A stretch of 64,000 nucleotides of DNA from Botryllus schlosseri (taxonomy: Eukaryota): the NCBI GenBank assembly GCA_051294905.1, contig CM119372.1:9798001-9862000 (forward strand), read 5' to 3'. Positions 4,352 to 57,547 of the stretch are shown here, piece after piece. The notes under the pieces are model-generated. The model was not told the origin of the DNA and made no database searches. It worked only from the letters and a program-made list of their open reading frames with translations. The position numbers and the translations under genes are program-made. Within the stretch, counting starts at the first letter, position 1; each line of letters starts with the position of its first letter.

Positions 4352-5364
4352 TTTACAGAAAAAATTAGGAGGTATCCATACATCAAAGCCCACTGTCCTT
4401 CTGTACCAGAATAGCGGGCTTATCAATGCCGACATTAAATCGGAAACGCACAGCGAGGTGATAAACAGCATGAACACATTTCTGTAAAAGACAAATGTGA
4501 AGCGATATGAAAATTTGTATATTTTTTCTTCTAATTTACGCAAACCTCAATTTCTGACTCTTCCGTATAACTAAAATTGTCATAGTGTTCAGAAGGATCC
4601 CGATCACGCAAAAGAGGAAAATGATGATTCCGGAAAATATGGTAACCCCATCGGTAAAGGGCCGCACGTAACTCCTGTAAATTGAGGAACTTTTTTTGGC
4701 AAAATTCTGAACACGGGAATGAGAGTTTTGGCAGATTACATGTCTACTTGCGATGAATTTAAAGCTAGGGTTACCATACGTCCTCTAGGAGGATTTTTCT
4801 TCCTTTCAGTTTTTTGAAAATGTCCTCCGAGGACGCCTAAATGCCCTCATTTTTGAGATTTTGTCCTCTTTTTTGAGAACTTTGCTCAAATTTACTGTCA
4901 AATTGAACTGAGATACCGTAAATTAGCACCGAAGTAAAGCTCCGGCGGGTATTTCAAGATTTTTCTCCGGTATTCTAAGTTTGAAAAAGTGTCCCCCTTT
5001 ACCGATTCCAAAATATGGTAACCCTATTTAAAGCACGAATACTAATATAGATTTCTGTTGTCGCTATGCCATTGCAAATACTGAATTTTAGAGAATAACA
5101 CGATAAGCGGTAACAACTTTTAACCGTGATTTTGTTTTTCATGTCCTAATTCTAACAGTTGCTTTTAATATACGAATACTTATTGTAAACCCTGTTTATC
5201 GAGAATGCAATGTGACAAGTTTAACTATAAAATACACAGATATATATGACTTCGAAGATGGCATCTTCAAGCCAATTTCACAAATATAATCAGTCTGTTG
5301 TCTATACTTACTCTTGCGTGGTCAAGTTTGGATATGACATCGTGGACAAATTGTAACTGGACAT
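4352..5364 (-). CDS. Class A GPCR paralog A, 5' part only (exons 1-3; N-terminus to start of TM3)
   Basis: Exons 5312-5364 (MSSYNLSTMSYPNLTTQ), 4546-4674 (ESYVRPFTDGVTIFSGIIIFLFCVIGILLNTMTILVIRKSQKLR), 4352-4481 (NVFMLFITSLCVSDLMSALISPLFWYRRTVGFDVWIPPNFFCK). GT-AG junctions with the same phases and lengths as paralogs B-D. Exon 4 not found in 1-4351. Confidence 0.85.
4766..5026. mobile_element. hAT MITE (TAGGGTTACCATA termini) in intron 1 of paralog A
   Basis: TIR TAGGGTTACCATA; perfect 8-bp TSD TTTAAAGC (4758-4765, 5027-5034). Confidence 0.9.
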
Positions 5365-5450
5365 CCTTCGGAATGTTAGAATATGATACAGAGTTCAATA
5401 TATGCCTATATTAAGTACATATATTACCAAATAGATACACGGTAAAGCAT

Positions 5451-7341: not shown

Positions 7342-9592
7342 TAAAGCATATAGGCAAGTGTCGTATAGGGTTAAATTGGAAATTGTGCCGAAACAGGAAA
7401 GTACACAGACTCTCCACAGCCATGAAAAGGAATGCCCTATTTACGCGCGACATTGTATTCTAACTGACTTAACGCCATTTCCCTATATGCTGGCTCATGC
7501 TAGTCTATACCTCAATTTTACTTCCAAAGGTAGGTCTACTCTACACCCCCGCCGCATGGGAGGCGAATGATACCATTGCCCCACCCAAATTTCCGACTTG
7601 TCCAATACGACGTCACCTTTGTTTACTAAGTCCCTATGGATCCATGGTGTCAATGTTGATAAATATGCGACCTTAGATGCAAATCCTGTAAAATTACTAT
7701 AGCAACCTTCAAGTAACTACCATATTTAATACGGGCAAATCATACATCGCTACACATACGCAACAAGTTTTCCGTTATGTAGCCTATACACTGATATCGA
7801 AATTGGTATATATATCGCCAGCTGATTTGTTGGTGCTTTGCTTCTTTTTTGTTTTCAGTGCATGCAGAAAATTCCGACAACTCATAGTCCTACAAATAAA
7901 AATTGCATGTGGGCGTTTCATAATTGCTCACAAGGCTCAGCGACGGCAAACGAGTGGACGGCAGTAGTAAAATACCGCTTTGCTTTTTCTTGTTTCTAAT
8001 GTATGTCAGAATTTCCGACTAGCGTTTAAAACTGCTTGTGGGCGGACGCGTAAGTTTTCACCGTCGACTGACGGCCTATGAGCTAGTATGAGCATGGTTG
8101 AACAGTTGCATGTTGAAACGGGGCCTTTGGGCAGCTAAACATATGAACATAACTTTCTAAAATTGCAATGTTTTCTTCACTAAATAGCGTGTTGAGGCCA
8201 ACAATACGGAAGGGCAGGCCTATACTTACATATCCCAACCCACGTTAGGGAAAATTTCATGGGGTACATCCAGGGATATCTAAATATCCCTGGGTACAGC
8301 ACACGCATCTAACGTTCTCTACATATGGAAACTTTAGTGCTAGCTTCCGTGTCACGAAAATTGAAATTTGATCAAGTAGTGTCAATGGAAAGTTACTGCG
8401 GTGCTGAATCCGAAAATGTGAAATATAGTTTGCTCATGCTGCTGATGCCTCCCTAAAATTACTCCGGAATTTGAAATTTCCATTGTGACGAACAATCGCG
8501 TTGGGGAGAACCAATTTTGTAGTCACTTTCATTGTTTCCTCAGCTCGGGGCGATAAGTGCATGGCAGAGATGGGAGTGCATTTGCATTTTGATAGGTAGG
8601 ATGAAATGCACCCGTCGCATGTAAATTGTGTTCAGGATATTAATCCCCTTCCAACATGTTGGCTCGGAGGAAGTTTGCGAATCGGGGTTAGTTGAGTTGA
8701 CTCGCATTCCTTCGTAAAAGGAGCTTAGAATAGCGTAGAATATATAAACTAGAATCATTCTGTGACATTTCTGAATACAGTAAAACGACTTTATTTAAGA
8801 AAATGAGTGCTGCACAGTGCACACAATAATGAGGAAGGTCAGTTATACAATCAAGACATAGCAACTGCCACACATAGCCTATACCGCAGCTTATCATATT
8901 GAACGGATGCGTACTTGCTTCTAAGGCTGAGAGTAAAAATAGCTCTGGTAAAAGACAGTAAGAGGATACTGACACGTATGAGTATTGTGTGATGAAGAGA
9001 TGTAGCTCTTCAACTTATCGCGGCATGGGCTGAATGTTTCGAAAAAATGAGAAAAATAAAATAAAATAACAAAATAAAAGTATCGCTGCATAGCTCTGAG
9101 ATATCAATGAACTTCTTGGATATATATCCCCAAACCTATTGCGAGCAAAAACAATTTATTATAGGAATGATAAATAGTACACTGATGATGGAGTCATATA
9201 CAATATACGCAATATAGGCCTACACTTGATAAATTTCTACATGCCTTTACGCTTGCGGCCGTATAGATATACGTGAAGTTTTGATCAGGTCACCCGGGTC
9301 TCGCTGTTGCGAGCTATATATATGTATAAATTGTACATTACATTGATTGAATGAAGTAGCCTACAAGTCGCTGATTACATGCTGACAGATTAGTCTGCAT
9401 AACTCGGATGCTGCAGATTCCGCGCGACCGAGCATAGTCGGCTACTATAGTCCGCCAATACTAAACGAATTCGTGCGGCCTGCGATAGTCAGGCGTACGA
9501 CATAAGTGAGGCAGAACACAGTTTGTCTTTTAAGAACACCAGTATGAAGAGATGTTTGTGAAACCATATCCTTTTCGTGAAAGCCACTGACT

Positions 9593-12500
9593 TTACAGTT
9601 CATTTGTGTCAAACGTTGAAGTGTTAGTTTCCGCTCGTGATCTTTTAATCTTGGTTCCCCTGCACCTGTTGCAAGCATCACTCACGTAGCGTTTCGTGTA
9701 CCTTCGCATTTTTGACGAGCTTATGTTGTAAAACACGGGATTCATGCACTCGGAAAATCGCAGGCAAAAATACTGGCAAAGTCCAAACCAGTAGTCAGCA
9801 ACCGGGTCGGCGTCGGTCTGTGTCGCCCAAAGTTCGTAAGCTGTACAATAACGAGACTAGGTTGAATCTGACATCACAACACATGCACTTCAAAGCAAGA
9901 GCTTACTGACGAATGGAAGATATCCAAATATGAAAGAGCACACAATCAGGATGAGTTGCAAAACGGCTTGTTTCTCTTTGCGCACTCTTTTTTTCATGGC
10001 CACGTCATCAGTCATAGTCGAGGACTTGGTACGGCTGTGCACCGACCGGCAGATCAACACAGAGACAATCGCAACGGTGAACATCGGTAATAGGATGAAA
10101 ATATTGTAGCTCGACAAAGAGAACATCTTGTACATTTCAATTCTGTCAGATATATTACGTTTTAATAATATGAAGCAGATAGAAAAGCTGTGGGCTTGCT
10201 TGACAGGTGTCTATATCGACTGGGTGACAGAGTCCAACTTATAAGTGACAGCTCATCATTTGAGTGACTTATTTTTTTTATTTTTTTTTTAATCGTTCAA
10301 GTGACAAATCATTTATGCGAACAATTGAAAAGTACCGTTTTGTTCTTTCGTTCGTGTTTGTTGAAGGATGCTAGATTGGCTTGTATTTCCCTAAATCACA
10401 GCATCGGTTGGTGGGACGATGTAAGAAAAAAATCCGTCGAGGCCATTAAGTCACGACGTAACTCCAGTGCTTCCAAACCTTTTTCAGTTCGCTACACACT
10501 TTTCATCCCGGTTTCGTTGTGTGGCTTACAATGAGATGGGACGGATGGGAACGTCACTCAACATCGCACTATGCGTCGTGTCAGTAACTAGTTAAAATGC
10601 TGACAAATGACTTTCCGCGATAATTCGGGAAAACGACTGTCTCAAGCTTACAAGAAAGCGCACATGTCTCTCTAACGTCGAACACAAAGGGGTTCAGAGT
10701 AGCTTTTTCCGGATGATTGTAACGAGAAATCCGATTGAATTGCCACATTTTTCGCTCAACGTTCGCAAAATCTTTGGAGGGTGGAAATAGTTACAAATCT
10801 CGGGCATACACAATAACACACTGCCAGATTTCACGCTCCAATCAAAATGACTAGGAATGATAGTTGTTTGTTGTTGTTTTTGATCATCATGGTATTTGTG
10901 GAGTACTATGGTCATTTACATCTGGCCGATATTTCTTATTTTTGATTCCGTATCTGCCGACTTGTAGCACGGCCCACTTCCAGGCTTTTTGTAAGACACC
11001 ACTTACGCGGATGATATGGCGAGGAGGAGTTCAGATGAACCTCCAACACTTAGGTAGGAATTCTGAAGTCGACCTCGGTCGGACTCGAATTCACAACCCA
11101 TTGGTGATGTAGCTGTGGAGTGTGCATTATACCACTACGCTATCTCGCCAAACACTAGGGATGGTGTGAACGTGGTGGGTTCTGGACTGTGAACCTTTTT
11201 CATATATTACAATTTTCAATACTTTACACCTTCAATATATTACAATTTACAATATTTTTTGGTTGGCCACTCCATGCATGGCGCTGGCAGCATAAAAAAT
11301 TAACACTAAAGGAGTTTGCTCGAAATATCCAGCTTTCCGTTTGTAAATATTTAGTGACTCTCTGCTGTGGGCTTGACCCGCAATCACACAACACCAAGAG
11401 CGAAATACGCTACATGTAGGTACTAGGTAATCATTGACATCGTCGGCAAATGTAAAAAATACACCAAGCGTACGGGGTCGATCTCGATTTCATATGTTTA
11501 TTGTATCATAAAAACCAAATCCATGCGATTGGGGTGTTGGCTACTGCCGTATAACTTGTTAATGGGGTAATATCGGTAGCAACTATAGAAAACTACATTC
11601 TGCTCAATATCAACGCAGCAACAATGAGACGCCGAATACATTATCCGGTCTGGCCTAGACCGTTAAGGCGTAAGCTTATATTCCCTTCCAAGTTCTCGAA
11701 GAAATTGTTGGCCAAGCGACGGAAGATATTGATTTTATGGGATTTTTATATCATTTGATTGTCCCAGTTGATACATTTGGTGACGTTTAAAAAGTCAGTA
11801 TGTACTTCAGCATTGTGGCATTGTGGCCCTGGTCGTCGTTAGGTATCGTGTACGTACGTACATTAATATATCACTTCACTGAAATGTAGGTTTGAAATTA
11901 GCAATATGACGTCACGTGACGTGATGAGGTTCGCGTTCGCGTTCACATAGAACCTTTCAAAAGGGCTCGGGCTCACACGAACCTGAACCTTTCGGAGGTT
12001 TACACCATCCCTAAAAATGACTGTCACGGAAAACTGGCTCACGAAATATTGTGAGCACGGGAAAAATGCGATTATGGGCGCAAAAAAAATTAATTTGAAG
12101 GATGAGAACGTATATTTGCTAGTCTAATCATGAGAAGATAAAGTATTTGACATATTTAGCAAATTGAATAGGAAACTGTATTGCTTAGAAATTCTTCGCG
12201 ACCCACCTGAAAAAGCTAGGTCGCGACCCCATAGGTTTGAGAGCACTGGTCTAAGGTGACATAATCAATTTCAGTAATTCGGGCAGTTCCAAGTCCACTA
12301 TTTGCGATATTATATAGAATTTACTCTTTTTTAATAAATTACCCAAGTTTACTATAAGCGTTGGAAGTACATTCCTTACGTTGCCAGCAGTAGTGTGCAA
12401 GCTGGCCATCTAGCGTTCGGTTCCCCACTGTATCGATCCCTCTTGACGCCTGGATCTGCACCGGTGAATAACCACATAGTAACGAAGCCGCACAGGAACG

Positions 12501-15500
12501 CGATCAGCCACGTCGCTAGTACCCACAGCTGAAAGAGAAAGAAGTCATTAGATGTGGCGGTGTTGTAAAGGCAGCGAAACGGAACTGCAAGCCTGGAATG
12601 ATTCGATAGAGAAATTGATTAATGGAGTGCCTACTGCCTACCTCGTTCTTCTAATATCGCAATGAAAATAAATGAAAATAAACGCTGCAGAATGAAAACA
12701 CGCTGAAGTAATGAATAAGAATCACATGGAACAAGAGAGATTAGATTGCAAATGTTACGAGCCGTATTTGCCTAATCCTAATCGATATGTCCGAAATGGG
12801 ATCTCGTAAAGTGCTGTCATCGCAGTACCGTTCAATTGAGGTGGCGAGATAGCACAGTGGCTTAAAACACAGTGGCTTAATCAACAAGGTAATACTATTA
12901 TCATTTATATTATTCGAAATTGGAAAGGTGTTAATCGTCATTTATAGATCTTTGGGGCAAATCAAATGGGCTTTTTACAACATATCACGAATTGGGCACT
13001 GCGGACGCCATTTGAGGTAGCGAAAATATGTTACATGAAGTGTGAATGAGATATGCAGCACATCGCAGTAAGTTGGTAGAAACCATCGATGAAAAACGTA
13101 TTTTGTGCATTAAGTCAAGAAGCGGCGACTCTTTCGATAACCCCTCATTCGTTGCACATCGGGGACCAAGCAATCGATTCTAAATATGTGACAGGCTAAC
13201 CTGCAGTGTACCTATAGCATACAGTCAAAAGATTATGCAGTTCGTGTCTGGTGCTGAAGGAAGACGGGCTGGGGAATAACCTGTATTGTATTGTGAGCCG
13301 CTTGCATCGACAATTCGACATGCTATTAAACCAAAAGAAACCAGCTGCATATATCTACATTGATTGCACTTCGCTTTTGTTATTACGTTCGAACATGATT
13401 GATGACAAGGAAGTTGGCTTACTCGAGCTCTATCGTCATCCCTGGTGATGCGATCGAAACCAATATTATCAAAGACGGTATCCTCTGTGCAGTTACTACT
13501 TCCGCAAATGTAGTCAATTTTGTATGCAAACCTATATAACCTACACCTATAATTTTTGCGTTACTAATCTCGGACGTAAATGCGATCCGCAACGCGATTT
13601 TAAGCGGTCCTCGAAAAGTCACCTGGAATTCAGAACATAAAACCTACTTTTTAATGATAATCCGTGGACACAAATCACAGGCTGTATACACTGAATCGGA
13701 TCTTCGTTCTCTATGAAGCCTGTTTATTTATGTGCCGCACTTACGTAGTCTATACCTATACGTCATACGAGTAATCCGGATTCAATGTAGCAACGTGTGC
13801 CGTAACAATTACAGTCACAAAAAGTCACTGTTTCCATATAGTTTCGTTCAAACCTTCTCTGTTGCCATCGTCACATTTACACAATCTGTGCTTCAAATTG
13901 TTACTCTGCGTGATATGTTTCCAAATCCCTAATTCGTAAAGCAAGTTACGGGCAGACGTGCCAAAAACAAGAAAGATGGGGCCGACGGCCGAAATTCTAA
14001 GAAGATTCGGAGCACTAAAATTTGTTTACTGGAGTCAGGGGTGTACACGTCCTTTTAGCTTGTGGCGAGCAGGTCGCCGTGGAGTACAATTTAAGCCCGT
14101 ATTACTGCATAAAACACGAAGACAGACACTCGGCCAAGGGTGGTCGAGTTTCGGAAGCAGTGCTGTTTCCGTCAACAACAAAGACCATTTCACCAAGCTG
14201 CACACAGCTCTGGAGGCAGCGACCAAGACAAGCTTTGTAGTATCCTAAATACATGTTAATGTTTTACGAGAAAAAGTACATCCAGTACAATACATCCACT
14301 GAGCAGCACGTATTAACAATGTAATTAACTGCTTTCAATTAAGAAATACAATTAATACGCCACAGAATATAGTTAAAATTTTTGACTAGGCCCGCCAACA
14401 TATTTTCTGCTTTTCATTTGACCTAAGGGGAAAATAATTGCCCACCGCGGACTAAGATGAAGCATGCTTACCAAGAAAACTGCGTGAAATGTGGTAGAAG
14501 TATCAATTTCCAAGACATGTCAAAACTATTACAAGTGGAAGTAGCAAATGAAAAGTATGAAAAGTAATCGAGTCGTTTGACAAAATAAACTTGTTCGAGG
14601 GTAGCGTAGTTTTAGCGATTACTTGGATATGGCTACATCTTACATAGCAAGGTCCGTCTTCGTAACTAACGCAAAACGACACTATACAAATAAATGCAAT
14701 CTTGGACAATATATTCAATTACCATGATACACACACGTGATACATGTACATTACGACTAATCCATAAAAGTGATGTGAACGTATCTTGAAACCACTTTAT
14801 ACTTTTCTATATTCAAAGTGTAACAAATAAGTAGTGTTGCCTGAAAAACTTATGAAAAATTGTAAGTAGGCCTATTACAAAAAACGTAGTCCATCTACTT
14901 CGAAAAGTAGAAGTATGCTTCGTTACTGACCACCTCTGCTTCAATGTGACCAGTTAGTAATTTTATGCTTGGCCGCTTTAATCCTCATCAAAAAACCTAC
15001 TCTGGATCCGACCGGACTCCAGCCGTAATACTAACACTACTCATACCGAGATTCACACTATGTACACTGAATGCTTTGTACGTACCAGTCCACCTCGTTT
15101 GGTGATGCGTTGAAAAAAAACCGGATGTTGAATGGAGATCAACCGCAGGAAAGCGAAATTTAAAATGTGCATCGACGTGGAAAAGGTAGTCATGGTATCG
15201 ACTGCCCAAAAGAGCTGAAAGGAAATTCCACGGAGATCACATCGTAATAAAGACACGCAATCGGTATTGCAAATCGATCGCGCTTGCCAGTCAATCTAAA
15301 AAAATTGACAGTGACAATTTACATCTACTGGGTGGGCACACAGCCGAGGATGCGGAAGTGATATAGATCGGGTTAGAGGTCAATCTGGGATCCTTATCGC
15401 CCATGCACAGGCACAGGCACTGACTGATAATAGCCTCGAAGCAAAGAGTGCTGAGTCGTAACTATGTTGGCGGTATACGCGGAACATCATAATCACAATG

Positions 15501-16684
15501 CGACATGTAATGTATCATTGCAATCACTAAAAACTATAGTCTATGATGCATTATCCTACATCGATTGCAATTTGTGTGTATTTTCTGAGCAACAATTGTA
15601 ATTAATTTATTTCCGCGCTCTTTTCTTTCTTATGGCTACTCGTGCGCTAAATGACTTCCGTGTGATTCGCACTTATTGTAAGCCCTCTTACTATAGTTTG
15701 CTTGCATGTAGGACTTCATACGGCAGGGTCATTGCAAGTATAAAAACGAAGTGAGGCGAAATTGTGAACATGCACGGGGCTAACATCATGGTCACACCCC
15801 TATCACTCCGCGCATACGACCATCACAAATACTAAATACTAAATGCGTCAAGGCTGATAAACTGAAAGACTTGAACGCTCGAGATCTGAATCGTGTCACA
15901 CTTACTTTGCAGAAAAAATTAGGAGGAATCCAAACATCAAACCCCACCGTCCTTCTATACCAGAAAAGTGGGCTTATTAGCGCTGACATTAGATCGGAAA
16001 CACACAGCGATGTGATGAAGAGCATGAACACATTTCTGTTAAGATAAAGGGCGAGCGAAATGGCATATCGCAAATTTACTGTATACTAATTTACTCAAAC
16101 CTCAATTTCGGACTCGTTCGTATCACTAATATTGTCGTAGTGTTCAAAATGATCCCGATTATGCAAAAGAGAAAAATGATGACTCCGGAAAATATGGTTA
16201 CGCCTTCGGTGAAGGGTCGCACGTAAGTCCTGCAAATAACAAGACATTGTGGATTGTAGAATTTCTTTCGACAAAATTATGAAGATGTGGATTAAGGACT
16301 AGGGCGCTAAATGCCCACTGACCGTGATTTCTAAAAAAAGAATGCCTCAATATCTCTCTCGCACATCATAGCATACTCGTGGTGTAATTGTGCCGTTGAA
16401 AATATTTTGGGCAAGAACAAAATAAGCGGCGGCAACTTTCAACCACTATTATGTTTTTCATGTCCTTTTTTAACGGTTGTTTTTATATAGGATGAAGTAT
16501 TATTAAACACCCGACTTATCCCGCATGCAATGTAAAAATGTAAATAACAAAATAATCTATTCAGATGTATAACTCGAAGACGGCATCTCTGAGTCAAAAT
16601 CATAAGCAAATCTGGCGATAGTTTCACTTACTCTTGCGTAGTCGAGTTCTGAAATGGCACCGTAGAAAAATTGTAATCGTACAT
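9593..16684 (-). CDS. Class A (rhodopsin-like) orphan GPCR paralog B, 7 exons, 357 aa
   Basis: Exons 16632-16684, 16101-16229, 15906-16035, 15086-15214, 12380-12528, 9907-10142, 9593-9840 (1074 nt, open frame, TAA at 9593-9595). Seven hydrophobic segments with LCVSD (TM2), C3.25, R3.50, ECL2 WPAC, TM5 LLP, TM6 GYLP, TM7 NPVFY and CxxC after helix 8. Confidence 0.93.
10852..12013. mobile_element. hAT MITE, TAGGGATGGTGTGAAC family, with a SINE inserted in its left TIR
   Basis: TIR TAGGGATGGTGT...ACACCATCCCTA; perfect TSD AAAATGAC at 10844-10851 and 12014-12021; body homologous to ~25840-27782 and 50996-52403. Confidence 0.85.
10863..11150 (-). mobile_element. tRNA-like SINE, family 2 (second copy)
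   Basis: Reverse-complement homolog of 2830-3108, with head and (CAA)n tail. Confidence 0.8.
13570..14250. repeat. Dispersed repeat; inverted, interrupted copy at ~18155-18490 plus ~20600-20965
   Basis: GCAGCGACCAAGACAAGCTTTGTAGTATCC (~14217) pairs with GGATACTACAAAAGCTTGTCTTGGTCGCTGC (~18160); CCAAATCCCTAATT (13921) pairs with AATTAGGGATTTGG (~20615). Confidence 0.75.
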
Positions 16685-33600: not shown

Positions 33601-35099
33601 CGTTTCATTTGACAAGTTTACTGCAACGTGCTTGAATGTTTAAATGAGCGGTTTCTTACATGGGACTTCACAAATAACGGTATGTCTGAGTAGTCGCCAA
33701 GGGGCGAAAATCGATACACTAAATTGAGGTCACAGAAACAAGATGAAGCAATCAACGGATTTTACCACACATTGTCCGCGATGTCAATTTGTTAGTTCTA
33801 TGACAGTGCTCTTATCATATCAAATAAATTAACGCCCATCATTGCATGCAGCTCCTACTTTACTTTACAGAAAAATTCAGGAGGCATCCAAACATCAAAC
33901 CCCAATGTCCTTCTGTACCAGAAAAGTGGGCTTATAAGCGCTGACATTAAATCAGAAACACACAGCGAAGTGATGAAGAGCATGAACACGCTTCTGAAAA
34001 GACAAATATGATGTGAATATTTACCGATTTTCAGTAATAACTCTCTCAAACCTCAATTTCGGATTCTTTCGTATCACTAAAATCGTGAGAGTGTTCAAGA
34101 CAATCCCGATCACGCAGAAGAGAAAAATGATTACTCCGGAAAATATCATAACGCCGTCGGTAAAGGGTCGCTCGTAACTCCTGCAAATAACATGGCTGGT
34201 GACTCAAAAAAGGTCATCAGACGCAATGAAACCGTGATATTAAAGTCGCGCCACGCTCCGAATATGATGCGGTTTCAAATTAAAGTTAGAACTGCGATAA
34301 GTGTTCGGCAGCATTCTTTTACTCAGAAGTCACCGCATTCGAACTGCAGCTGAAAGATTTCCACGAGGGGTTCTGTAGCACTTCATCAATCTCTTAGTTT
34401 TCGGTACTACGCATCATCGCTTCTTTACCCTTTGCGTACGCTACAATACTTATCGGAATTAAACCGCAGTGGTTCATAACATACAGCTCTTTCGTAAGAT
34501 CTTCTGTCCTTTAGATTTAAAAACCCCTACTTGTTTGCTTCGAGAAGGTGCAACAGTCCCGTATGCGTGCCAGAAAATGGTCGAAAATGATAACCTTTTT
34601 TAGCCACCATCATCAGGATATGGCGATCAAAAGTGATATGACGTAGGTTGGCGATCTTCCAACATCTTGAACTGGGTGCAATCGAAGTACTAGGGTGCCG
34701 CGAACTGCTTTTCCCTTTCAGAGGGTGCCTCGAGGTCAAAAAGGTTGAGAATCACTGCTGTATGGAGTCACAGAAAAACTGTGTCGCATTACTAATTGTA
34801 ATGTTCAAAATATTTGCCATTCATCGATTACAATATAGTTTCATACATTGGAAATTAATTAGGATTTTGGTCAATTAGAATATGCGATGACAGCATCTTC
34901 TTGAAATATATGTTTGTAGAAGACGAAAGATTATCGGATCATAGACTTTACCTGTGCAGCACAGCAATCTGAATAGTGACATAGGCTAATCTTGGAAGGG
35001 ATCCCTGATGTTAATACCGAAGAACATAATAGATTCTTTGACTTACTCTTGCGTTGTGGAGTTTTGGTATGGCACTGTAGAAAAATTATATCCATACAT
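30605..35099 (-). CDS. Class A orphan GPCR paralog C, 7 exons, 357 aa
   Basis: Exons 35047-35099, 34052-34180, 33864-33993, 32843-32971, 31724-31872, 30922-31157, 30605-30852. All GT-AG, frame open, exon lengths identical to paralog B; NPVFY and GYLP present. Confidence 0.93.
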
Positions 35100-42646: not shown

Positions 42647-42765
42647 TAGTACTTTTGCAGCAGCGGTGTGTGTCGCACGAAAATAGTAACATGCGAACTA
42701 TAAACGACGGACAAAAATATGATTGTTGAAAATATTAAACGGTATCAACCACACACACGCACACA

Positions 42766-45007: not shown

Positions 45008-45870
45008 TAGGGCGATTTTTTTACCTAAATATGGAAGATTCTGACCTAAAACATCGAAATTTTGACATTTTATGACATTAAAATCTTAATTTTGACCAAA
45101 TTTGACATAATGTATGCAAATTAAGTGTTTTCCGACATAATGTTAGAATTGTACTACTTATCTTCATTTCTGGTTGGAGCTGTCTGTCCTTACGAAGTAG
45201 TTTGGCATGCAAAAAACTTTTATCCCTCGCAAACGGACAAATTGTTACATGGAAAAACTTTATTTTAACGAAATCCGGCCCTACGAAAAATTCCATTAGT
45301 TATCCTACATTGCGCATTATGGTAGAAATTTTTGAAATTCTTTGTATTACAACGAATGATATTTTCCCACATTCTCGGGTAGAAAGTGTCTGTCCTTACT
45401 AAGTATACCTTGCCAAGAATGGAGAAAGACCGTTCAAAAGCAGCAGTTGTTGGCTGACAACACTGAAGTTGTGCGTACACTGCTGGTGACAAACCGTGTT
45501 GCTTCATTCTGGCAATGGTGTCTACATCACAATTTTTCATCGTGCGCCTCTTGATCTTAAGAACTATGAAATGCCCACGCAGTCTTGCTTCAGTTGGGAT
45601 ATTGCGGTACGTTGAGCATAACACCATGTAAACCTATTTGTTTTATTTGAATGTTTATGATTCTCAATGAGCAGACAATGGGCCCTCTACAACGGTAGGC
45701 CTATAAAGTATAGGCGACAAGCTGTAAAATGTCAAATGATAAGTTCACCGACAGTGCAAAATCTACGATATAAACGAAATGCAGGTTGCAAAAAAGTTTT
45801 AACTTAGTAAACAATTTTGACATTTTTTGACCTAACGCTACAATTTGGACCTAATTTGGACTTATATAAA
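45008..45870 (-). mobile_element. hAT-derived element with frameshifted transposase C-terminal relic (copy 2)
   Basis: YAQLQCCQPTTAAFERSFSILGK followed by a frameshift; collinear with ~23811-24560; the same end fragment occurs at ~30129. Confidence 0.7.
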
Positions 45871-46205: not shown

Positions 46206-49200
46206 TCAAACACCCAAATTCGTAGCGCCGACTTCAAAGCTCGAGGTTTCCGACGCTGCACGACTCCCGGATTTATCAGCGCAGCCGCAGAACTTGCACA
46301 TGTTGTTGAGATACCTCTTCGTGTTCCTACGCATTTTCGAGGAGCTGATGTTGTAAAACACCGGGTTCATGCACTCCGAGAACCTCAAGCAGAAATACTG
46401 ACCAAGGCCAAACCAATAGTCGACCACAACGTGAGCGCTGCCGAAAGCAGACCAGATCTCATACGCTGAGAAAAGAGAGATAAACGGTCATTGTCGGGTG
46501 AACCTAGTTAGATTCATTTGAGTACTTACTGACGAAGGGAAGATATCCGAATATGAAGGACACCACGATGAGCACTAACTGCAGCACGGCCTGTCTTTCT
46601 TTTCGGAGGCGCTTTTTCGTCGCTTTGTCGTCGTTCACCAATGACGATTTCGCGTGGTAATGGACAGACCGGCAGATCAACACAGACACTATTGCGACCA
46701 CTATCATCGGTAGCAGGATTAGGACGATGTAGCTCGACATTGAGTATTTCATATAGTCGTCAAGTCTAAAATATACGAAGTTTGTTCGTAACAATAATGA
46801 TGACGAGTTGGTTCTGCACTCAGCAGTGATCAGACATACGTTTCTAACAGCAGGGTGCACGCGGGCCATTTTTCATTCTTTTCACCGCTGTTGCGATCTC
46901 TTTGTTCTCCAGGCACGGCCCCGGTAAAGATCCACAGCGGCACGAATCCGCACAGAAAAGCGATTACCCATGTTAGGAAGATCCAAAGCTGTGAGATTCA
47001 GAATAATGCACCATATTAACAATCACTGAGGAACTGTATTTTTGGTTCGTCATAGGTGGGATAACAGACTATATTGTGTGTTGCCTTTGTTAGAAAATGA
47101 GTCGACGAGCTTCACTGCAATACTTTTTGAGAAGGGTTGGAACATTTCAACTAATATTATATTTGGCGTTGATGGGCGTTTTTATGACTTCTCACATTCA
47201 GATAAAATGCATTAATTCGTGCGTCGCCAGCTGCCGAGATAACACTACGTAAATGACGAGTCGAATGATACAATACTAGAGTTACCATACGTCCGAGGAC
47301 GCCTGAATGTCCTCCATTTTGGCAATTCGTCTTCATTTACAGCTTTTACAACTAGGCGAATGGACGGGGTCAACTGAAAATAGGCTTAAATGACGGACGT
47401 TCGAGCGGGTCATTCGGGTGTCGAATCATTGTGATGGCTTTTTTTTAGTCAACACCACAGAAATATCGTAAAAACTGGGTAATGCGGGAATCGAGTGAAA
47501 GTGGTGACCATTTTTTAGTCAATACAACAAGCTTTTCAGTAAATATTTCAAAATCAGCTGATTTCAATTTCGGTAAACTAGCTTTTAGTATTTTTTTAAA
47601 AGTGCCCTGGTTTCTGGATTCCAAAATATGATAACGCTATGCAATACGCATGATTTTACCGGCTGATACTGAATCATTATGTATATCTGGACAATGGGCC
47701 ACTGTATGCAACATAATAGCATGGCATCCCGAAACATTTATAGCATGGCCTTAGAGCACAATAGCAACAACCTATCACGTTGCGTGGCCTGCCATAGTTT
47801 ACATATAAAATCGAATTTTGAAGCTAAAGTTGCGCATTGTGTATACTGTATATACTGGCCGGAAGATGATAGCATCCATCAGGCGTAAAGTTAATAGAAG
47901 AGAACTTCTGATTTGTGTCAAGTCGATACAGATAGGCCTGCATAAATGCGAATCATATACATAATCTATTAATGTAGGAACTGAAAGATATAGTATTTAC
48001 GCATAGCTCTACCTTCGCTCGTCTTTCCGAGATCCGCTGGAAGGTACTGGGATGTTGTATCGACAGATATCGCAGAATGGCAAAGTCTAGAATATGCATG
48101 GAGGTGGAGAAGGTTGTCATGAGATCGACAGACCAGAAGAGCTGACATAAAAATAAAAATAAAAATACAAATACAGCGCAATGTTGTGAAGTGACCATGG
48201 AAAATAGATGTTTGATAAAACGCTATCAGTCTAAAAATATAGCCTGGCAGAGGAGGATTACATCAAAGAGTTATATAAACTTCTCGGGGTGTCAGAAGAA
48301 ATATATAATAAATGCCCATAAGCACAGAAGTTTGGATGTGCGGCACCCTTATTTTGGGGCTCAGCTGACACTACCACGCGAAGAGTAGAGTGACCATGGG
48401 ATACCGAATACAATTAAATCCATGTTTATCGGCGCTTAAAGATCAAATGCAAACGACCGTGAAACTCTGGTAAACACCTTGCATAACAGATTGACCTCCC
48501 TAATGTGGGCTAATCAGAGACTAAATCACGGGTCGCCATCACGCAGCCCGCAAGGTCATATTTTGTGGCCTGCGAACTAATTTGAGATTTCGGAAGAACG
48601 CAAACTTAAGTATTTAGAAATGCTGAAATTTAGATCAGTTTCAAAGTGTTGTTGCTTCAATATAAGCTATTCGCCTTTGCCAAACATCGTTATTCCTCAC
48701 TAGTTGAAACGGCTTCGGCGATAGCAACAGCATATAGGGAGAATCAGCTGATATGAATGGACAATGGGCGCCTTGAGGTTCAATGGCTCAGACACTGCCA
48801 AGACCAAGACGCCTTCGGTCTTCTTACATTATCAAGCTTTAGAACAGGGGTCTCAAACATGCGGCCCGCGACGGCATTTTGGATTTTCAAGTATTCGACA
48901 ATATATTCAACTGCCACATATTTTTTTAGATTTGAGAAGTTAAAGTTTATCTAAAACTTCTCCAAATACCTGAAGTCGCATTAAACTTCACCATCACATC
49001 ACTTTCAAAAGCTGTCATACGGTGGAAGATCATCTATTATGTCACATTTCTAGTTGATGATGATAAAACATGACCCGTTGATGATTCGTGACTGAAAATT
49101 GTGATTTGGACTTGGGCGCAACCCGTTCGTAGAATTACTCGAATTCGGACGTAGGTGTTAAAATCGAGTTGAGTTGGGTCAAACGTTACAATCAGAGAAG

Positions 49201-52200
49201 GACTCGTGACTCGGCGCCTTGATCTGGTTCGACCACGGACGCAACAAACTATCAAACTGTCACGGGGAATAGTAATATAATCAATAAGTCGCAACTTCCA
49301 TTGCGTAACGTATATAGCTATTTAATCATGTCAGTATGGAAATCATTGCCAATCTGTTGCTCCCATGATGTATAGTTAGTCACATCCTGGGTGATCATTG
49401 GTCTCTTTACTCGTGGTATTATTGCCGGATCCGAAAAATTAGTGGTACGCTCCATAGCTGTAACATCAATGGATTCTTCGACGATTGGACATTTCTATTC
49501 CAGGGGTTCTTAACCAGGGGTACGAATCACCACATCACGGGGTACGAGATGCATTGTGAAATCAAGCCTACATGCGATCTAGAGCCAAAAACTATTTTGC
49601 AAACCCCCAAAAAAGTGGAATATTTTATGGGCTCATTTATTAAACTTTAAAAAATTCTTCGCTCTACGCGCGAGTTTATGTGAATAGACTTTTTTGTATT
49701 AATATAGGTACCGTCAGGAATTGTGTTGAGAATGGACAGGTGTATACGAGAAATCTTATTGAAAGCACAAGGGCTACGATCGCTAAAAAGGTTAAGTAAC
49801 ACCGCTATTACTATATGACACAATATTTATTATATTTAAGTTGTTATTGATCTGTTCCAATCGTAGGCAAAGCTAACGCTGATTTAATTTGACTTCGGCA
49901 ATGACATGAACGATAGCCTACTTATGTCTACACCAGAAACCCGGATTAGGCTACACTGCCTAAATGCTATGATATCAGATCAATCTTGGGTGCATTCTAA
50001 AATATTCTACCTCTAATTGTGGCACGTCAAATTTCCGCAAGCTGCAGCATTATAACGCGGCAGCTTTTGCGATGTCATGATGTATTTTTCCTCTCGCATG
50101 GTGCATATAAATCATTATTTTGACAAATTATGTGCAGCGTGTCAACCGTGAAAAGTACAATAGTGAATTACATTTCCACGATATTTGTGGCATGACAATC
50201 TGCAAGGATCCGTTAAATAAGGCCTATTCTTAGGAATTATACATTGAAACCCCTATTATTGATGCTGCGGCCCGCGGCGTCATCAAAACTAGGAAATTGG
50301 CCCGCCAGCACTGATGAGTTTGGGACCCATGGAGATAGTCCGCGTGTCTCGCCAGCCCTAATATCGATTCCTTAGTCGCTGAAAAACGTTGTCATGTATG
50401 GTGCGCAGCTCATAGTTCTAAATATAATGAAAATGACGATCATGATCTTTCTGGATGTATTTGCACTACTTTAATAAACTATTACTTCTTTCGTGGTGAC
50501 CTATATGACACGTCAGTCGCCCATGTTTGAGAGCGCAGCGTTGTGCTGACGTACAAAGTTTTAAAAACGTGATTTCTAAACTGTGTGGCATATTTTGTCT
50601 CGATAGTGCATTCTTGCGGCCCGCGACCTCAACGAAATTTGAAAAGATGCCCGCGACCAGTTTTGCGTTAGCGGCACTGGACTAAATGAACGTATTCCAT
50701 AGGGCAGTGGTTCTCAACGGGGGGTCCGCGAATCAATTTCAGGGGGTCCGCGCAACCTCCAAATTTGCAAAATATGTGATAACATGTCGAAGCAGTTTCG
50801 CTTCATAACTGCTAAAACTGAAGGACTCAGGAAAACTGCATGGCCGTCTGAGATGAAATATTATAGTGTGCAAATTCACTTTATTCGCCAATTGCCACTG
50901 ATACAAACATTTTGCTGTTTAGAGATGTTTTGTTAGGGCTTCGGAATAAATTCGCTTGCAAAACAAAATCTATTTTTTCCCTGTGATAACCGCTGTAGGG
51001 ATGGTGTGAACATCTGAAAGGTTCAGGTTCGTGTGATGTGAACGCGAACCTTTTTGAAAGGTTCTGTGTGAACGCGAACGTGAACCTCATATTGCAAATT
51101 TTAATGCTACATTTCAGTGAAGGGATATATTAATGTACATGTGACCTAGCGACCTAGCGACGACTCGGGCCACATTATGTCACAATGCTGAAATACATAT
51201 TGACGTTTTAAAGGTCGCCAAATGTATACACTGGGGCAATCAAGTGATATAATAATCCCATAAAATCAATATTTTCCGTGGCATTGCCAACAATTTCGAC
51301 GGGGACTTGCAAGGGAATATAAGCTCACGCCTTGGACTAGGCCAGACCGGACTATGTATTCGGCGTCTGAGTATTGCTACATTGATATTGAGCAGAGTGT
51401 AAAACGGGTTTCTATACTTGCTACCGATATCATCCCATTAACATGTTATACAGGAGCATCCAACACCCCAATCACACGGATTTGTTTTTATAATACAATA
51501 AACATATCAAATCAAGATGCCTGCTATGCCCGTATGCCAGCTAGATTTTTTACATTAGACAACGATCTATTCCGAATTTCATTTATTGGTTGAATAAGCA
51601 TCATTGGCAACCACCTACATGTATCGTATTTCCCTCTTGATGTTGCGTGATTCCTGGTCAAGCTCACACCAGAGAGTCGCTAATTATTCACATAGGGCTG
51701 GGCAAAATCGAGTACCTCAATGATTAGATTCTGAATCACGTAAAATGCTTCGAGTCGAGTCGAGTATTCGAGTATCATTCATTATGACGTCATAAAAGAA
51801 TGTAATATGTCAAAGTTTAAATATGTACCTTTTATGCCACAACAAAGAATATAATCCTTGTTATCCATCACATCAAAGATAGTTTGGTATTTTTTCGACC
51901 AGACGGGTTTCATTACACTTTGGCCAATCAAGGTTTCAAGGTTTCCACAGTGGAAAATTGTATCGAAACTAAGTCTCGTTGATAAATTAACTTGCAGTGG
52001 CGAGGAGCGTATATTTCAGTACTCGAAAAATCGACTTTTGCTACTCGACTCGAATCATTAAAATAATTACTCGATTCAGATTCGAGTTCTCGAATCATTG
52101 CGCGCAGCCCTATTTACAAACGGAGAGCTGGATATTTCGAGCAAAATTTTGTAACAAAGCAAGTAAAAATTTCGAGAATGGCAAGGTTTAGTGTTGACTT

Positions 52201-55200
52201 TTTTTATGCGGCCAGCGCCATGCATAGAGTGGCCTGAAGTTGAAATGCAAAGAATTTCAACCAACGATGTCATAATGACGTGAAAAATTGTAATATATAA
52301 AAAAGGTTAACAGTGCAGAACCTATCAAGGTTCGTTTGCGAACGTGAACCCCTAAATTTCTGAGGTTCACACACATAACAGCCTCACGTTCACACCATTC
52401 CTAATTAACCGCTATTCCCGAATAACTTCAAGATGATCTGCTACATAGAAATGACTACGCTGGACATTATATTAATAAAATGATGATGGTGATGATATTG
52501 GTGCCATGTATGTTGCGATCAGACCCAAAGTTGTCGTTGGAAGTGTTACGCGTTATTATTACATTCGCCATCACCTATCTTTATGTAAATTAATAGATTT
52601 TCGGCACTCGTTCATCTCAAATCGACGACGCGGATTCTCGAGACACGGCAGCTTATTTCAAAAAATGGCAGCCATAGAATTCGCTTTAAAATCATAATCG
52701 TCTTTCCAATGTCCACATAAATAGTATGATGTCAATTTCAAGAAAGGTCATATTGTTGCTGTTTATCACTAGCCTACAGTTAATATCTGTACAAAACTGA
52801 TGACGGTTGCACGGTGATAGAGCTAAATTTGAACCAAAACTTGAGGGGCCTGCGAGGGTCCATGACGGTCCAAAAGGGGTCCGTGAAGACAAAAAGGTTG
52901 AGAACCACTGCCATAGGGAATGAATTCTATAATATCACCCAGTATTATGGAGTGCTAGCATTACGCAATGCTAGAATGTCGCGCTAATCGCAGTTAGTCG
53001 ATTTACCATATATTATTCAATATTCAATCATCCACAATAAGCTAATCGCAATAAGTCGATTTACCATATATTATTCAATCGTTCACATTGTGATTAGCGC
53101 GTTATTTCACGTTATGTTATTAGCATTTGCACTTTCGCCATAAATATAAGGTCTGGGCTGGTAGTGCACCTTACGGCGCAGTAAAATCCTTGAACCACGC
53201 CTACCTAGTACCTACGCGACACGCCCTCCGCATACTATTCACAGGGATATCTCTGCTGACTATTCAGCTCTGTGCTGGTATCGGTATCTCCCCAAAACTG
53301 TACGCGGCGTAAGGCGCATTCGACGTGCGTGACTTACGCTGTGATAACCAGGGATATCCCTGACGATAACAAGTCGACCAATTACGTTCAGACGTGCCGC
53401 TACGTTATCGGTAATTGCGCATATGTAATTTCAAATAACAGTCCTCCGCATATAAGTGATGATCATCTGTACGCACGTATAGTGGTTACCTTTATTGAAC
53501 GATATGAAACGACGTTTTCTTCTCCTCCGTTGAAGGGTCAACGCCCGGGGTGCTAATTTCTCTCCTAATCGGTTCGCTTCATCCGGGAGTATTTGGTTGT
53601 AGTAACAGAATGAAAATTCTGTAGTAATCCTAATTGGTTGATAAAATCGTATCGACCGGCTGATCAATATGGACGTAATGGAACTGTCGTTTAACGCAGG
53701 GCAAGCCTATCAATCAATGTATAGACGACGACTGTGGAATAGCATTTCACTGGCAATCCGATAGTACACATTCACGCGTTGCCCAGTAGGGCTGTTCAGA
53801 AATAACTTTTTTACCCGGATTCAAGCCATTCACTGATTAAATTGTCAGGTTGCAATACAAATTTGAGTCAATTCCGACCAGTAGAAGCGGAGTTATGTGA
53901 GTTTTTCGATGAGAATTCTCGGATTATCCTTGATCGGTGGATAATCCGCGATTTATCAACGAAAATCTCACATAACTCCGCTTCTACTGGTCGGAATTGA
54001 CTCAAATTTGTTTTGCAACGTCTTTAAAGACAGCTCAACAATTTCATGGGGTTGGCAGAAAAATTTGGAAAATTTTATTTTCAATTTTCCATGATAAATT
54101 AAAAATTTTAATTGGATCTGCGGAGTCCTATACTTGTTAGAATCGAACCAAATTTGGTGTGCAGCGTTCTTTAGGGTAACCTGACAATTTAATCAGTGAA
54201 TGGCTGGATTCCGGGAAAAAAGGTTGTTTTTGAACAGCCCTATTGCCCAGTGCCCACATTCAAGTCAAAATAGACGCAGATTCCACTGAATAAATACTGG
54301 TCAGCGCTCGGGATTACCATACCAAGGTCTGATATATCGACTTCCACTATACCGTTACACGCCGCATGATTTTCATCGCTTGCCGTTTTTTCTTATGTTA
54401 TCTCATGTTTTTCATTGAATGTGCAACTGATCTGCATGTTATCTATTTATATGGAGTAATAACCTCGCGGACTGCCGGCGCCGGCGCCACGACATATTCG
54501 GCGACCCGCGGCTGGTTTCAGATTCCGGGAAAAACACGTGACTATTTATATATTTGAATGCTTATAATAATATCCGTTTCGCAACGGCAAGAATGTTCAT
54601 AATAATATCATCCCATGCGATCATCTACATCAGTCTCTTCTACATATTATGGGTGTTTCGGTAACATAGCGTGATTTGAATGGCGGACTGGCTGATGGCA
54701 ACTAGTGGTCATTGAATTGGCGTGGCAATAGGCCAGATGCAAACAATGACAATAGTGTGCTTGACTTTCTCTTGATGGGTGCCCAGTATTACTGAATCTA
54801 TACTTCTCATCGCTTTGAAATACCCGGATAGTCATTAAGTGAGTTGCGCTCATGTATTATAACATCCAATAAAAGTGATTGTATGAAACACGCTATTCTA
54901 GAGAAATGGGGGTACTGTTTGCTCTGTGAATGTAATGACCAAACCCTCTGTCCCATCTGTTTCGGAACTACTGCTCTCAGAAACAAATGCAGTGTTTGTC
55001 AGTATTTCGCAAGGAGGAGTTACTAGACACTCAATAACAAAACGCGAACAGAAGTTTTTGAGTGCTTTTCAAACCCTTCATTTGCTACTTTCACTTTAGT
55101 TTTAGTTTTGACATGTCTGGGAAATTGCTACTTCTAGTTGTAATTAAGTAGAAATTCCGTTACTTCTACATCTAGTTGAGTGGCAACGTTGACTACAATG

Positions 55201-57547
55201 ACCAACTCCGAGGATAAGTTATATTTATATCTCGATACTGCAATATTGTGGGTTACGGCCCTATCAACTTGGAGAAGAGGCCCTTTGCCTATTTTGAGTT
55301 GGCGACTCCCATTCTAGAACAAGATGGGTGTTTGATTGAAAGACTGCTCCTACTCGTTTCGACACCTATCTCTTCATTCTATCGTAATCTGGTGTTTTGA
55401 ATTGATGAAAATACTGATGAATGAAAGAATGAACGACAGAAAGTACCGTATACCTACTTTGCAGAAGAAGTTCGGCGGCAACCAGACGTCGAATCCCAAT
55501 GTTCTTCGGTACCAAAATAACGGGCTTATGAGCGCAGACATCAAATCAGAGACGCAAAGCGACATGATGAAGAACATGAATACGTTTCTGCGCACGGAAA
55601 GAGACTGCGTCAAGTACTTTCGTTGCGGACAAACGGACAGCGCGCAATAGCGCATTCACTGACCTTAACTTAGGAGTGCTCCGTATCACCACAATCGTGA
55701 GAGTGTTCAAAAATACACCGATCGCCAGAAAGAGAAATATCACTGTGCCGGAAAGGATGGTTACGCTGTCGTCGAACGGCTTGATGTAAGTCCTGTTAGG
55801 TGTAATTGCACTTCATTTCCAAAGTACGTTTTGGCGCCAATTCTATGAGTTATTTTGTTGCTACATTTAGCCTTTACTTTACGATAGAGAATGAAGCCAT
55901 GAAGTGATTGCGATATGCCCAAACATCCGAATAAACCTGATGGTGAAATGAAAAGAATGCAGCGTTGTCGCAGGCAGCACTCGCAGCAGTTTATAAAATA
56001 TCGTCCTCGAAGCATTGGTTCAACTTGCAGCGACAATTTCCATGATCAGCCGTCTATCACCACTAATGATATCTGGATGACAGTACATCGCACGAATATG
56101 AGGTCAGTGGAATTATCCAGACACTAGAGACCGCACCAAGCCTAAAATTGGCAGAAATCATTCACAATTGGACTCTGAATGAGGTTAGCGTGCCACACAG
56201 TAAGTAGGCTGCTTATGGTAGCTCTGCGTTGCCTTGATCATATTCTAACCTCCAAGGCAATGACTTGTTTGATAAACCATATTTTGTCAATATTTCAATT
56301 CAAGAGAGGAGATATGCTCATCTCAGGAACTGGAATAGTTGCATCAAACTTGTCCTGGAAAAAAGATCTCTCTGTATTTCGATTGAAATCAATGTGTCGT
56401 TTTATGAATTTTATATGACTGCCTGTCTGCATGTCACCGGTATTTTGTATGTATTCTCGTGGTGGATTTTATTATAACTAACCCGATAATGAAAACATAT
56501 TGTAAAATTGTGATGTCTTGCAATAGAAGGGTTAATATGCATGCCAGAAAGCAACAATGATTCAGGTACCGATAGGGCTAATTGCGGTTGTAAGCTGCAG
56601 TAGCGAGAGGGTTAATGCGCGGCAATAAGGGTTAATTAGTCTGCAGCGGAAGTGCGAAAATTGTATCTTTTGAAGCGTCATTTTGCCATCGAAAGCGTAC
56701 GGTACGCCGTGCGTTCGCTTTCCATTTTTCTCAATGGGCATTCCGCGCACACATGTGTCTGTATGCATCGGATATTCTATTCTATATATTTGACAAAATG
56801 TATTAGCCATGACAGAATCCATACATGGCATAGCTATTACAGGTGGTATCAATATCAATGCATCATTTCTTCCCATGTGTCCCATGATGCAGGTTTATCA
56901 TGGTACTGTCGGGATGGGATATTCCTATGTCCTCTCAGCATCATTCATATCGCGCGGTGTGACACACTGTAATTTACGTCATATTGCCACAAGTATATAT
57001 TTTGTAGACGACATAACACCGAAATTTTATATGTGAGTAATAAATAAACTTTGGTTGTATGTGCACGCAAACGGAAATGTCGTCGACAATGATACCTTGT
57101 ATCCAGTAGTATGAGCACAGTGAACACCATATAAGTCGATTGTAAATTGTGTAAATCGTGGTCATGTTTTCTGCATTGGAACACTGCATTCCATGTGATT
57201 CTTACGACATTTTTGCTTGCAAGATTCCGTGGCTATGGTTATAGCAACATATTCTAACAATGGTAGATTCGTGCTTTCACCCACGTGTTTTAAGTCTTGA
57301 CAGAGCTTACACACAGTTCCGAGAATTTTATACCAATCGCAATGTCGAGTTCGAACTATCTCATCTGTTTTGACTCGCGTACAAAAGTACTGCATAGCCT
57401 TCGCCTATACAATGCGATACAATCGATTAACTCGAATACGGTTATATTCGTTCTCATATTGAAATTGTGTGAGTGAAGGAAATATAGCGAGACTTACGGT
57501 ATCGTCGTTCCATTATCAAACGGAGTCATCGAAGCGTTGTAACTCAT
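46206..57547 (-). CDS. Class A orphan GPCR paralog D (most divergent), 7 exons, 360 aa
   Basis: Exons 57498-57547 (MSYNASMTPFDNGTTI), 55664-55792, 55458-55587, 48013-48141, 46840-46988, 46530-46765, 46206-46465 (1083 nt). GT-AG junctions, open frame, GAAGA-ATG start context shared with B and C. Exon 1 assigned by phase, length, two sequons and start context. Confidence 0.9.
47277..47639. mobile_element. TAGGGTTACCATA-family hAT MITE in intron 4 of paralog D
   Basis: TAGAGTTACCATAC...TATGATAACGCTA; TSD TACAATAC/TGCAATAC. Confidence 0.75.
48527..50679. mobile_element. Nested hAT MITE complex 1 (inner elements 48845-50331 and 49501-49805)
   Basis: Outer perfect TSD GACTAAAT (48519-48526, 50680-50687); inner TIRs CAGGGGTCTCAAAC...GTTTGGGACCCATG and CAGGGGTTCTTAACC...GGTTAAGTAACACCG. 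Confidence 0.7.
50705..52910. mobile_element. Nested hAT MITE complex 2 (inner elements 50996-52403 and 51693-52112)
   Basis: Outer TIR CAGTGGTTCTCAAC with perfect TSD CCATAGGG; middle TAGGGATGGTGTGAAC element; innermost TAGGGCTG...CAGCCCTA with TATTCACA/TATTTACA duplication. Confidence 0.88.
53787..54242. mobile_element. Foldback hAT MITE, TAGGGCTGTTCA family
   Basis: TIR TAGGGCTGTTCA; perfect TSD TTGCCCAG; long internal inverted arms, left arm partly deleted. Confidence 0.9.
56250..57400 (-). mobile_element. Possible heavily decayed L1/Tx1-type ORF2 C-terminus in intron 1 of paralog D
   Basis: Broken minus-strand fragments WNAVFQCRKHDHDL and VCKLC...GES resemble the Cys-rich end of L1-clade ORF2; many stops. 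Confidence 0.3.

Follow-up and report, generated by a model that had tools for sequence, protein, structure and literature searches.

What kind of receptor is encoded by the similar genes repeated along a 64,000-nucleotide (nt) stretch of the Botryllus schlosseri genome (GCA_051294905.1, contig CM119372.1, positions 9,798,001 to 9,862,000; the whole stretch is called the window here), and what might it bind? The genes encode G-protein-coupled receptors (GPCRs) of class A and form a tandem array; a tandem GPCR cluster as such is ordinary, and the interest of this one lies in the family to which it belongs. The reading favoured here, which is judged probable by a modest measure, is that the genes are tandem paralogs of a tunicate-restricted class A family, a fast-evolved offshoot of the ghrelin/motilin/neuromedin-U/neurotensin receptors that would carry a D3.32-R7.43 lock and respond to an endogenous peptide ligand.

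Six-frame translation and self-BLAST of the 64-kb window identified GPCR exons repeated on the minus strand, and the genes were then spliced by their coordinates. Three of the copies are complete: copy B, of 357 amino acids (aa), at 9593..16684 (exons 16684-16632, 16229-16101, 16035-15906, 15214-15086, 12528-12380, 10142-9907 and 9840-9593); copy C, also of 357 aa, at 30605..35099 (35099-35047, 34180-34052, 33993-33864, 32971-32843, 31872-31724, 31157-30922 and 30852-30605); and copy D, of 360 aa, at 46206..57547 (57547-57498, 55792-55664, 55587-55458, 48141-48013, 46988-46840, 46765-46530 and 46465-46206). Each has seven exons with open frames, all 18 introns are bounded by GT-AG with phases 2,2,0,0,2,1, and the internal exons measure 129/130/129/149/236 nt in all three. 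Splicing thus bears out two proposals of the initial annotation of this DNA, that the minus-strand paralogs share one seven-exon layout and that three of them give uninterrupted seven-transmembrane (7TM) proteins of 357-360 aa. The same annotation counted at least four intact genes, of which B, C and D stand, but copy A (minus strand, 4352..5364) shows only exons 1-3 (5364-5312, 4674-4546 and 4481-4352), with an open frame and GT-AG boundaries, giving 104 codons from the N-terminus to C3.25-K. Neither tblastn nor exon-by-exon blastn found exons 4-7 of this copy in window positions 1-4351; the LFWA and LFWS peptides at 1754 and 710 were rejected as its exon 4, as there is no AG acceptor and a stop follows. 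Given that intron 3 of copy D is 7,316 nt long, copy A may continue beyond the window edge. Introns 2 and 6 are short in every copy, at 58-76 nt (for example 16036-16100 and 9841-9906), introns 3-5 vary from 74 to 7,316 nt across copies, and the start codons of all four copies are preceded by GAAGA or GAAGG.

Expression of copy B is modestly supported by contigs. Four runs were aligned to window positions 1-19000, where repeats dominated, and 15 of the 194 joints were displayed. A contig from run X8, whose library type is not on record, joins 9838 to 9907 with two letters between, skipping the 66-nt intron 6 of copy B (9841..9906, minus strand), so that one junction of the array is seen in contigs; no joint of copy A is among the 15 of 194 displayed. 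A second contig aligns exactly to exon 6 of copy B (9907-10142) and carries about 150 further letters which, being of the length of exon 5, would represent that exon. Contigs also span the stop codon and about 360 nt downstream of it (an X8 piece at 9230-9554 and an X5 piece at 9472-9635, which crosses the stop), and 9230..9592 on the minus strand is therefore the probable 3' untranslated region (UTR). The remaining junctions of the array, including those of copies C and D, are predicted from sequence alone. A 454-nt X8 contig at 16823-17232, just upstream of the copy B start codon, is possibly 5' UTR or the flank of a neighbouring repeat.

Comparison of the copies indicates that they are under purifying selection. 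Copies B and C are identical at 297 of 357 positions (83%) and each matches copy D at 242 of 356 (68%), while exons 1-3 of copy A are 83-85% identical in aa to B and C (85% to B) and 70% to D, such that A, B and C are indeed closer to one another than to D, as had been noted. The best kept regions are transmembrane helix (TM) 3, TM6 (25, 23 and 24 of 26 residues for B-C, B-D and C-D), TM7 (29, 30 and 28 of 31) and TM2 with extracellular loop (ECL) 1, which together with intracellular loop (ICL) 1 retain 43, 43 and 42 of 48 residues; the least kept are ECL3 (8, 3 and 1 of 11), ICL2 (12, 10 and 9 of 17) and the C-tail (20, 12 and 12 of 31). This regional pattern is the one first described, except that the N-terminus, which had been listed among the divergent parts, is identical at 16 of 18 positions between B and C. 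The ratio of nonsynonymous to synonymous divergence (dN/dS) is 0.15 for B-C (dN 0.079, dS 0.525), with all 13 regions below 0.5; it is 0.07 for A-B over exons 2-3 and 0.094 for C-D, where synonymous divergence from D is near or at saturation. Since dS is high while dN among the copies is 0.08-0.20, the conservation reflects selection and not recent copying.

The window genes are class A GPCRs with a 7TM fold. Pfam 7tm_1 is matched on exon 6 in copy B (E 1.1e-5), copy C (E 7.2e-6) and copy D (31.5 bits, cut-off 30.5), and the nearest database protein by exon 6 is Styela clava XP_039268414 (P0001) at 64%, followed by a Ciona protein at 43%. P0001 itself scores 100 bits against 7tm_1, and its AlphaFold model (mean predicted local distance difference test score, pLDDT, 81.5) has seven helices and helix 8. 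Hydropathy gives six peaks in each of B, C and D, with TM7 polar, and the ESM Atlas matches are generic 7tm_1 clusters only (0.97). All three proteins keep N1.50, D2.50, C3.25 with the ECL2 cysteine, R3.50, W4.50, P5.50, F6.44, P6.50 and NPxxY, but the usual class A switches D/E3.49, Y5.58, C6.47-W6.48 and S7.46, which are common and not strictly required, are replaced; instead they carry D3.32, T3.39, L3.49, S5.58, G6.47-Y6.48, R7.43 and E7.46. Residues were counted over 65 family rows and 36 outgroup class A rows, with the long-branch protein P0137 excluded: of the 65, R7.43 is present in 60, E7.46 in 61, Y6.48 in 62, G6.47 in 63, D3.32 in 46, R3.50 in 60 and Y5.58 in none, and of the 36 outgroup rows, D/E3.49 is present in 33, Y5.58 in 31 and W6.48 in 24. 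Copies B, C and D all carry the resulting family signature of D3.32, G6.47-Y6.48, R7.43 and E7.46 with no Y5.58. At position 3.49 the window genes carry a hydrophobic residue, and neither Asp nor Glu is among the family's five commonest residues there.

The family typified by P0001 and Ciona XP_026690745 (P0002) is, from its sequences, old and tunicate-wide, and has so far been found only in tunicates. With P0001 as query, the search yielded 13 relatives when E was capped at 1e-15 and 162 cluster representatives with the cap at 1e-10. A FastTree of 105 rows (65 relatives, the three window proteins, one long-branch row and 36 ordinary class A receptors), built after removal of rows shorter than 290 or longer than 700 aa, of near-duplicates and of six long partial hits, separates the relatives and window proteins from the ordinary receptors with support of 100. 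Source names were obtained for 20 of the 65 relatives and all 20 are tunicate (Styela, Ciona, Clavelina, Oikopleura), a further 10 being listed without a source name and 35 not looked up. The branching order of the window genes is ((B,C),D); P0001 is their sister (97-99 in FastTree, 97/89 in a mixture-model tree) and the group is nested among further Styela paralogs, which places the duplications of B, C and D after the split from the Styela gene. By this tree the tandem is lineage-local, and the lineage-specific expansion of orphan class A GPCRs proposed for the locus holds for the tandem but not for the family, which is ancient. Automatic names of members include GHSR-like, NMUR-like, opsin-like and adenosine A3-like, among others. 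No paper treating the tunicate R7.43/E7.46 family as a unit was found in a literature search whose coverage left out most subscription journals, and neither a taurine chemotaxis paper (PMC12922724) nor a vertebrate GPCR cartography (PMC6504862) has anything on it; the family is apparently undescribed as a unit. A 27-row branch, P0013-P0154, whose named members are from Styela, is fast-evolving and keeps R7.43/E7.46 with pocket conservation lost, often with D6.51 and R6.55; as judged from sequence it makes a stronger candidate for a chemosensory or immune-diversifying role than the window genes do. The same-species pairs P0001/P0032, P0013/P0164, P0006/P0015, P0012/P0037 and P0173/P0174 each list an equal-sized largest contig, a weak hint that family genes may lie in clusters in further tunicates. 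P0016, a 57-aa bacterial protein in the 90% cluster of the Ciona receptor, is an evident database artefact and was left out.

Where does this family come from? By profile, the nearest solved receptors are GHSR (7e-35), NTSR1 (3e-33), MLNR (1e-29) and SSTR2 (2e-28), with amine receptors at 2e-24 or weaker; GHSR, NTSR1 and MLNR head both the PDB sequence lists and the Foldseek list for the P0001 model, at 17-23% identity. The ghrelin/motilin likeness first proposed is thereby borne out in sequence and fold. The marker named for it, P2.58, is present in the window genes but is a weak one: six deep family rows have P2.59, many rows have no proline, and P2.58 is shared widely, occurring also in chemokine, purinergic and somatostatin/opioid receptors according to the available portion of PMC5403833. 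In the mixture-model tree of 36 rows (12 family and 24 other, with vertebrate GHSR, NTSR, NMUR, GPR39 and opsins not among them, and outgroup labels lacking a source name read from motifs) the family is supported at 100/100 on a long stem, and all 12 family rows, but none of the 24 others, combine R7.43 with E7.46. The family groups with GHSR-like, MLNR, NMU/PK, TRH and ETH-type receptors, and its position as sister to MLNR and amphioxus GHSR-like receptors is weak (72/79, among rows without vertebrate GHSR/NTSR). In these trees the window proteins lie outside any characterised clade. E3.33, found in 13 of 13 rows of the GHSR/MLNR/NMU group, is kept by the two deepest of the 12 family rows, which favours an origin of the family from the ghrelin/NMU group; on these sequences such an origin is likely.

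Given these residues, a mechanism can be proposed. In the ghrelin receptor, an E3.33-R6.55 salt bridge divides the pocket and is needed for ghrelin binding, as stated in the part of the preprint available (bioRxiv 10.1101/2021.06.09.447478). This bridge is absent in the window genes, which have T or L at 3.33 and E at 6.55. Because positions 3.32 and 7.43 form a '3-7 lock' in other receptors (PMC3343417, section available), a D3.32-R7.43 salt bridge is the natural candidate to take over its role. The ligand would be endogenous and polar, a short peptide being the likeliest kind; it would pass beneath the ECL1/ECL2 rim, which is made up of charged and aromatic residues that are conserved (R2.63, R2.64, D-R and W-x-x-C in ECL2, and D7.31), and break this bridge between TM3 and TM7; the change would then pass through Y6.48/F6.44 and the D2.50-E7.46 polar core to R3.50 and NPxxY, and the G-protein site would open as the end step. 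Since the pocket is nearly the same in all copies while ECL3, ICL2 and the C-tail differ, the copies probably recognise identical or closely similar ligands, the differences between them lying in expression, tuning or desensitisation.

Two published ascidian genes bear on the setting in which such receptors might act. In the accessible text of PMC10087333, the Polycarpa mytiligera 'GHSR' is wound-induced, mostly in tunic cells, the tunic labelling being given there as 'data not shown'; its primer encodes FSECLN, the family TM7 motif found in 25 of the collected family proteins, and, read by eye, its listed sequence has the family TM2/TM3 motifs and resembles the P0019 branch. Expression of the Ciona 'Ghsr-like' gene KY21.Chr12.653 rises 6.7-fold in response to CiEMa, a hemocyte peptide (PMC10888236, as excerpted), and the primer for this gene encodes ECFNPV, matching only P0055 among the collected proteins. 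By these short published sequences, both genes belong to other branches of the tunicate family, and their induction would carry over to the window genes by analogy only; an inducible wound, immune or hemocyte setting for the window genes, borrowed in this way, is accordingly a tentative suggestion that is more readily doubted than adopted. A Botryllus 'GHSR/GATA2/ETS' cell cluster mentioned in the part of PMC13622670 seen is a lead only, as it could not be tied to sequence.

Several points weigh against the favoured peptide-receptor reading. The window genes lack E3.33, R6.55, W6.48 and D/E3.49. Foldseek E-values change little across the first 50 ranks (from 8.5e-12 to 2.6e-10), the placement among peptide receptors (93/95) is unstarred, the trees held no vertebrate GHSR, NTSR, NMUR or GPR39 sequence, and an approximately unbiased (AU) test does not reject a grouping of the family with two amine-type receptors (p-AU 0.253). 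The putative lock is drawn from residue positions, and the model used is that of the relative P0001 rather than of a window gene. No assigned ligand, coupling or cell type was found either for the window genes or for the family members identified; those induced by wounding or by a peptide belong to subclades other than that of the window genes (by eye P0011/P0019-like in one case, P0055 in the other), and induction of a receptor mRNA does not name its ligand. Finally, copy B has little raw RNA depth on its exon-bearing bins, with 0-1.5 in X13 and about 0 in X17, and of its six junctions a single one appears in the 15 of 194 joints shown.

It is conceivable that the receptors instead bind a small charged metabolite, such as an amine, an amino acid or a similar zwitterion, held between D3.32 and R7.43. 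An acid at 3.32 lies beside the invariant R7.43 in 35 of 38 core family rows, aminergic receptors use D3.32 as the counter-ion of the amine (PMC3343417, same section), and the AU test leaves the link to amine-type receptors standing. This is nevertheless quite unlikely: the aminergic fingerprint also needs W7.40 and Y7.43, positions at which F and R stand in the window genes, the profile search puts amine receptors some 30 bits under GHSR and NTSR1, and the conserved residues extend to ECL1/ECL2, which would fit a larger ligand. The loss of the DRY acid and Y5.58 raises a different possibility, that these are atypical receptors, either constitutively active or G-protein-uncoupled scavengers or decoys. 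Both residues are standard activation switches (PMC3343417, in part), the former hydrophobic in the window genes but acidic in 33 of 36 outgroup rows, the latter in 0 of 65 family rows against 31 of 36. Such a loss would have to be reconciled with the retention of R3.50 (60 of 65), NPxxY, D2.50, P5.50 and F6.44 and with a conserved basic ICL3/TM6 end. Many class A receptors, moreover, signal despite missing one standard activation switch, and the atypical explanation is considered improbable.

A chemosensory role, in which birth-and-death expansion yields receptors for environmental cues, was the analogy originally drawn for the array, and it is suggested by the tandem arrangement, the size of the family (162 matches at E up to 1e-10), the fast-evolving 27-row branch with its variable pocket residues, and ECL3 being the most divergent region among copies. 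The analogy finds no support at this locus: the window genes sit in the conserved core with fixed pocket residues, no B-C region reaches a dN/dS of 0.5, no pseudogene fragment was found in the window, and the members described in print respond to wounding or to a peptide, in tunic and pharynx, in the portions of those reports available. It is thus improbable to much the same degree as the atypical explanation, or a shade more so. An origin from opsins, with Arg at the retinal-lysine position and retinal no longer bound, is extremely unlikely. R7.43 does occupy the position of rhodopsin K7.43 (PMC3343417, in part), opsin-5 clusters are among the equal-scoring Atlas matches (0.97), and some members were automatically named 'blue-sensitive opsin-like' or 'rhodopsin, GQ-coupled-like'. 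These opsin-named proteins were later renamed GHSR-like, and no opsin is among the best 60 PDB sequence matches or the listed top 50 fold ranks.

A bolder version of the favoured peptide-receptor reading is that the family is what the ghrelin/motilin receptor became in tunicates: the TM3-TM6 lock was exchanged for D3.32-R7.43 with an E7.46 core that is acidic, the DRY acid and Y5.58 were lost, and a radiation produced dozens of receptors for hemocyte and wound peptides, the array being a recent burst of it. Taken whole this is unlikely, but were it true the family would play a part like that of chemokine receptors in what is the sister group of vertebrates. Members are read as GHSR homologues with conserved repair roles in at least two ascidian papers, despite the absent ghrelin-binding bridge. 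The non-standard switch set, kept across ascidians and Oikopleura, offers a natural test of class A activation without D/E3.49, Y5.58 and W6.48. The family is also a defined candidate receptor set for orphan ascidian peptides, namely CiEMa (PMC10888236) and LF-3/4, YFV-2 and YFL-1 (PMC6475428), each reported in the text available as still without a receptor; among the NTLPs, only NTLP-2 is listed as receptor-paired in the part of PMC8936170 seen.

The remainder of the window contains repeats, counted here as sequence with a second copy inside the window. Such non-exon repeats make up 20.6% of it and occur in four of 20 introns (A1, B4, B5 and D3) and in none of the six introns of copy C, so that the heavy transposon load first ascribed to the introns was overstated. 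Two intergenic 690-bp remnants, 83% identical (23874-24552 and 45101-45779), carry the hAT transposase C-terminal dimerisation region (Pfam PF05699, E 1.3e-5 and 0.0011). Repeats of 338 bp, 78% identical, at 1634-1959 and 63515-63850 have an RNA read pile of about 370x with tRNA-like loose ends, which suggests a tRNA-derived short interspersed element (SINE); ARAGORN called no tRNA in the window, these repeats included, and Rfam likewise gave no match. Short elements with inverted halves, resembling miniature inverted-repeat transposable elements, lie at 17433-18110, 53784-54246 and 3945-4196 and are mutually 67-70% related. A 198-bp tandem duplication, AACTAG-rich arrays and a degenerate ACCCTA telomere-like run are also present (5997-6412, 37596-38494, 40572-40661).

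Compared with known systems, the window genes are like the ghrelin receptor family (GHSR, MLNR, NMUR, NTSR, GPR39) in their top sequence and fold matches, in P2.58, as in GHSR and MLNR, and in an Arg at 2.63 (by count from D2.50), as in GHSR R102. They differ from it in having no E3.33-R6.55 bridge, W6.48, 3.49 acid or Y5.58, and in R7.43 and E7.46 where that family has Y and S/A. Aminergic receptors combine D3.32 with W7.40 and Y7.43, whereas the window genes combine it with F7.40 and R7.43, and the opsin K7.43 is replaced by R7.43 in all three. Among ascidian receptors, the 23 Ciona 'Other Rhodopsins' of Kamesh 2008, class A proteins without assignable orthologues that were thought ascidian-specific, are a residual bin omitted from the trees of that study (PMC2396169, in part) and can be likened to the family by description. 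The Ciona-specific peptide receptors Ci-LF-R, Ci-YFV-R and Ci-NTLP-2-R, deorphanised by Shiraishi 2019, provide in the available part of that report (PMC6475428) a precedent for duplicated, urochordate-only GPCR clades that bind species-specific peptides. The LF-Rs, at about 600 aa, carry a long N-terminal domain, and by eye the family motifs were not seen in the first approximately 400 characters shown of each Shiraishi receptor; identity with Ci-LF-R, YFV-R, NTLP-2-R or GALP-R was rejected, as the partial sequences compared differ by eye. The Polycarpa and Ciona 'GHSR' genes belong, by primer translation and by a reading of the listed sequence by eye, to the tunicate family but to other subclades, and in the text available are treated as GHSR homologues on expression data only. 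With the tunicate family at large, the window genes have in common the TM2 YRRT-G, TM6 GY-P and TM7 R-SE--NP signatures.

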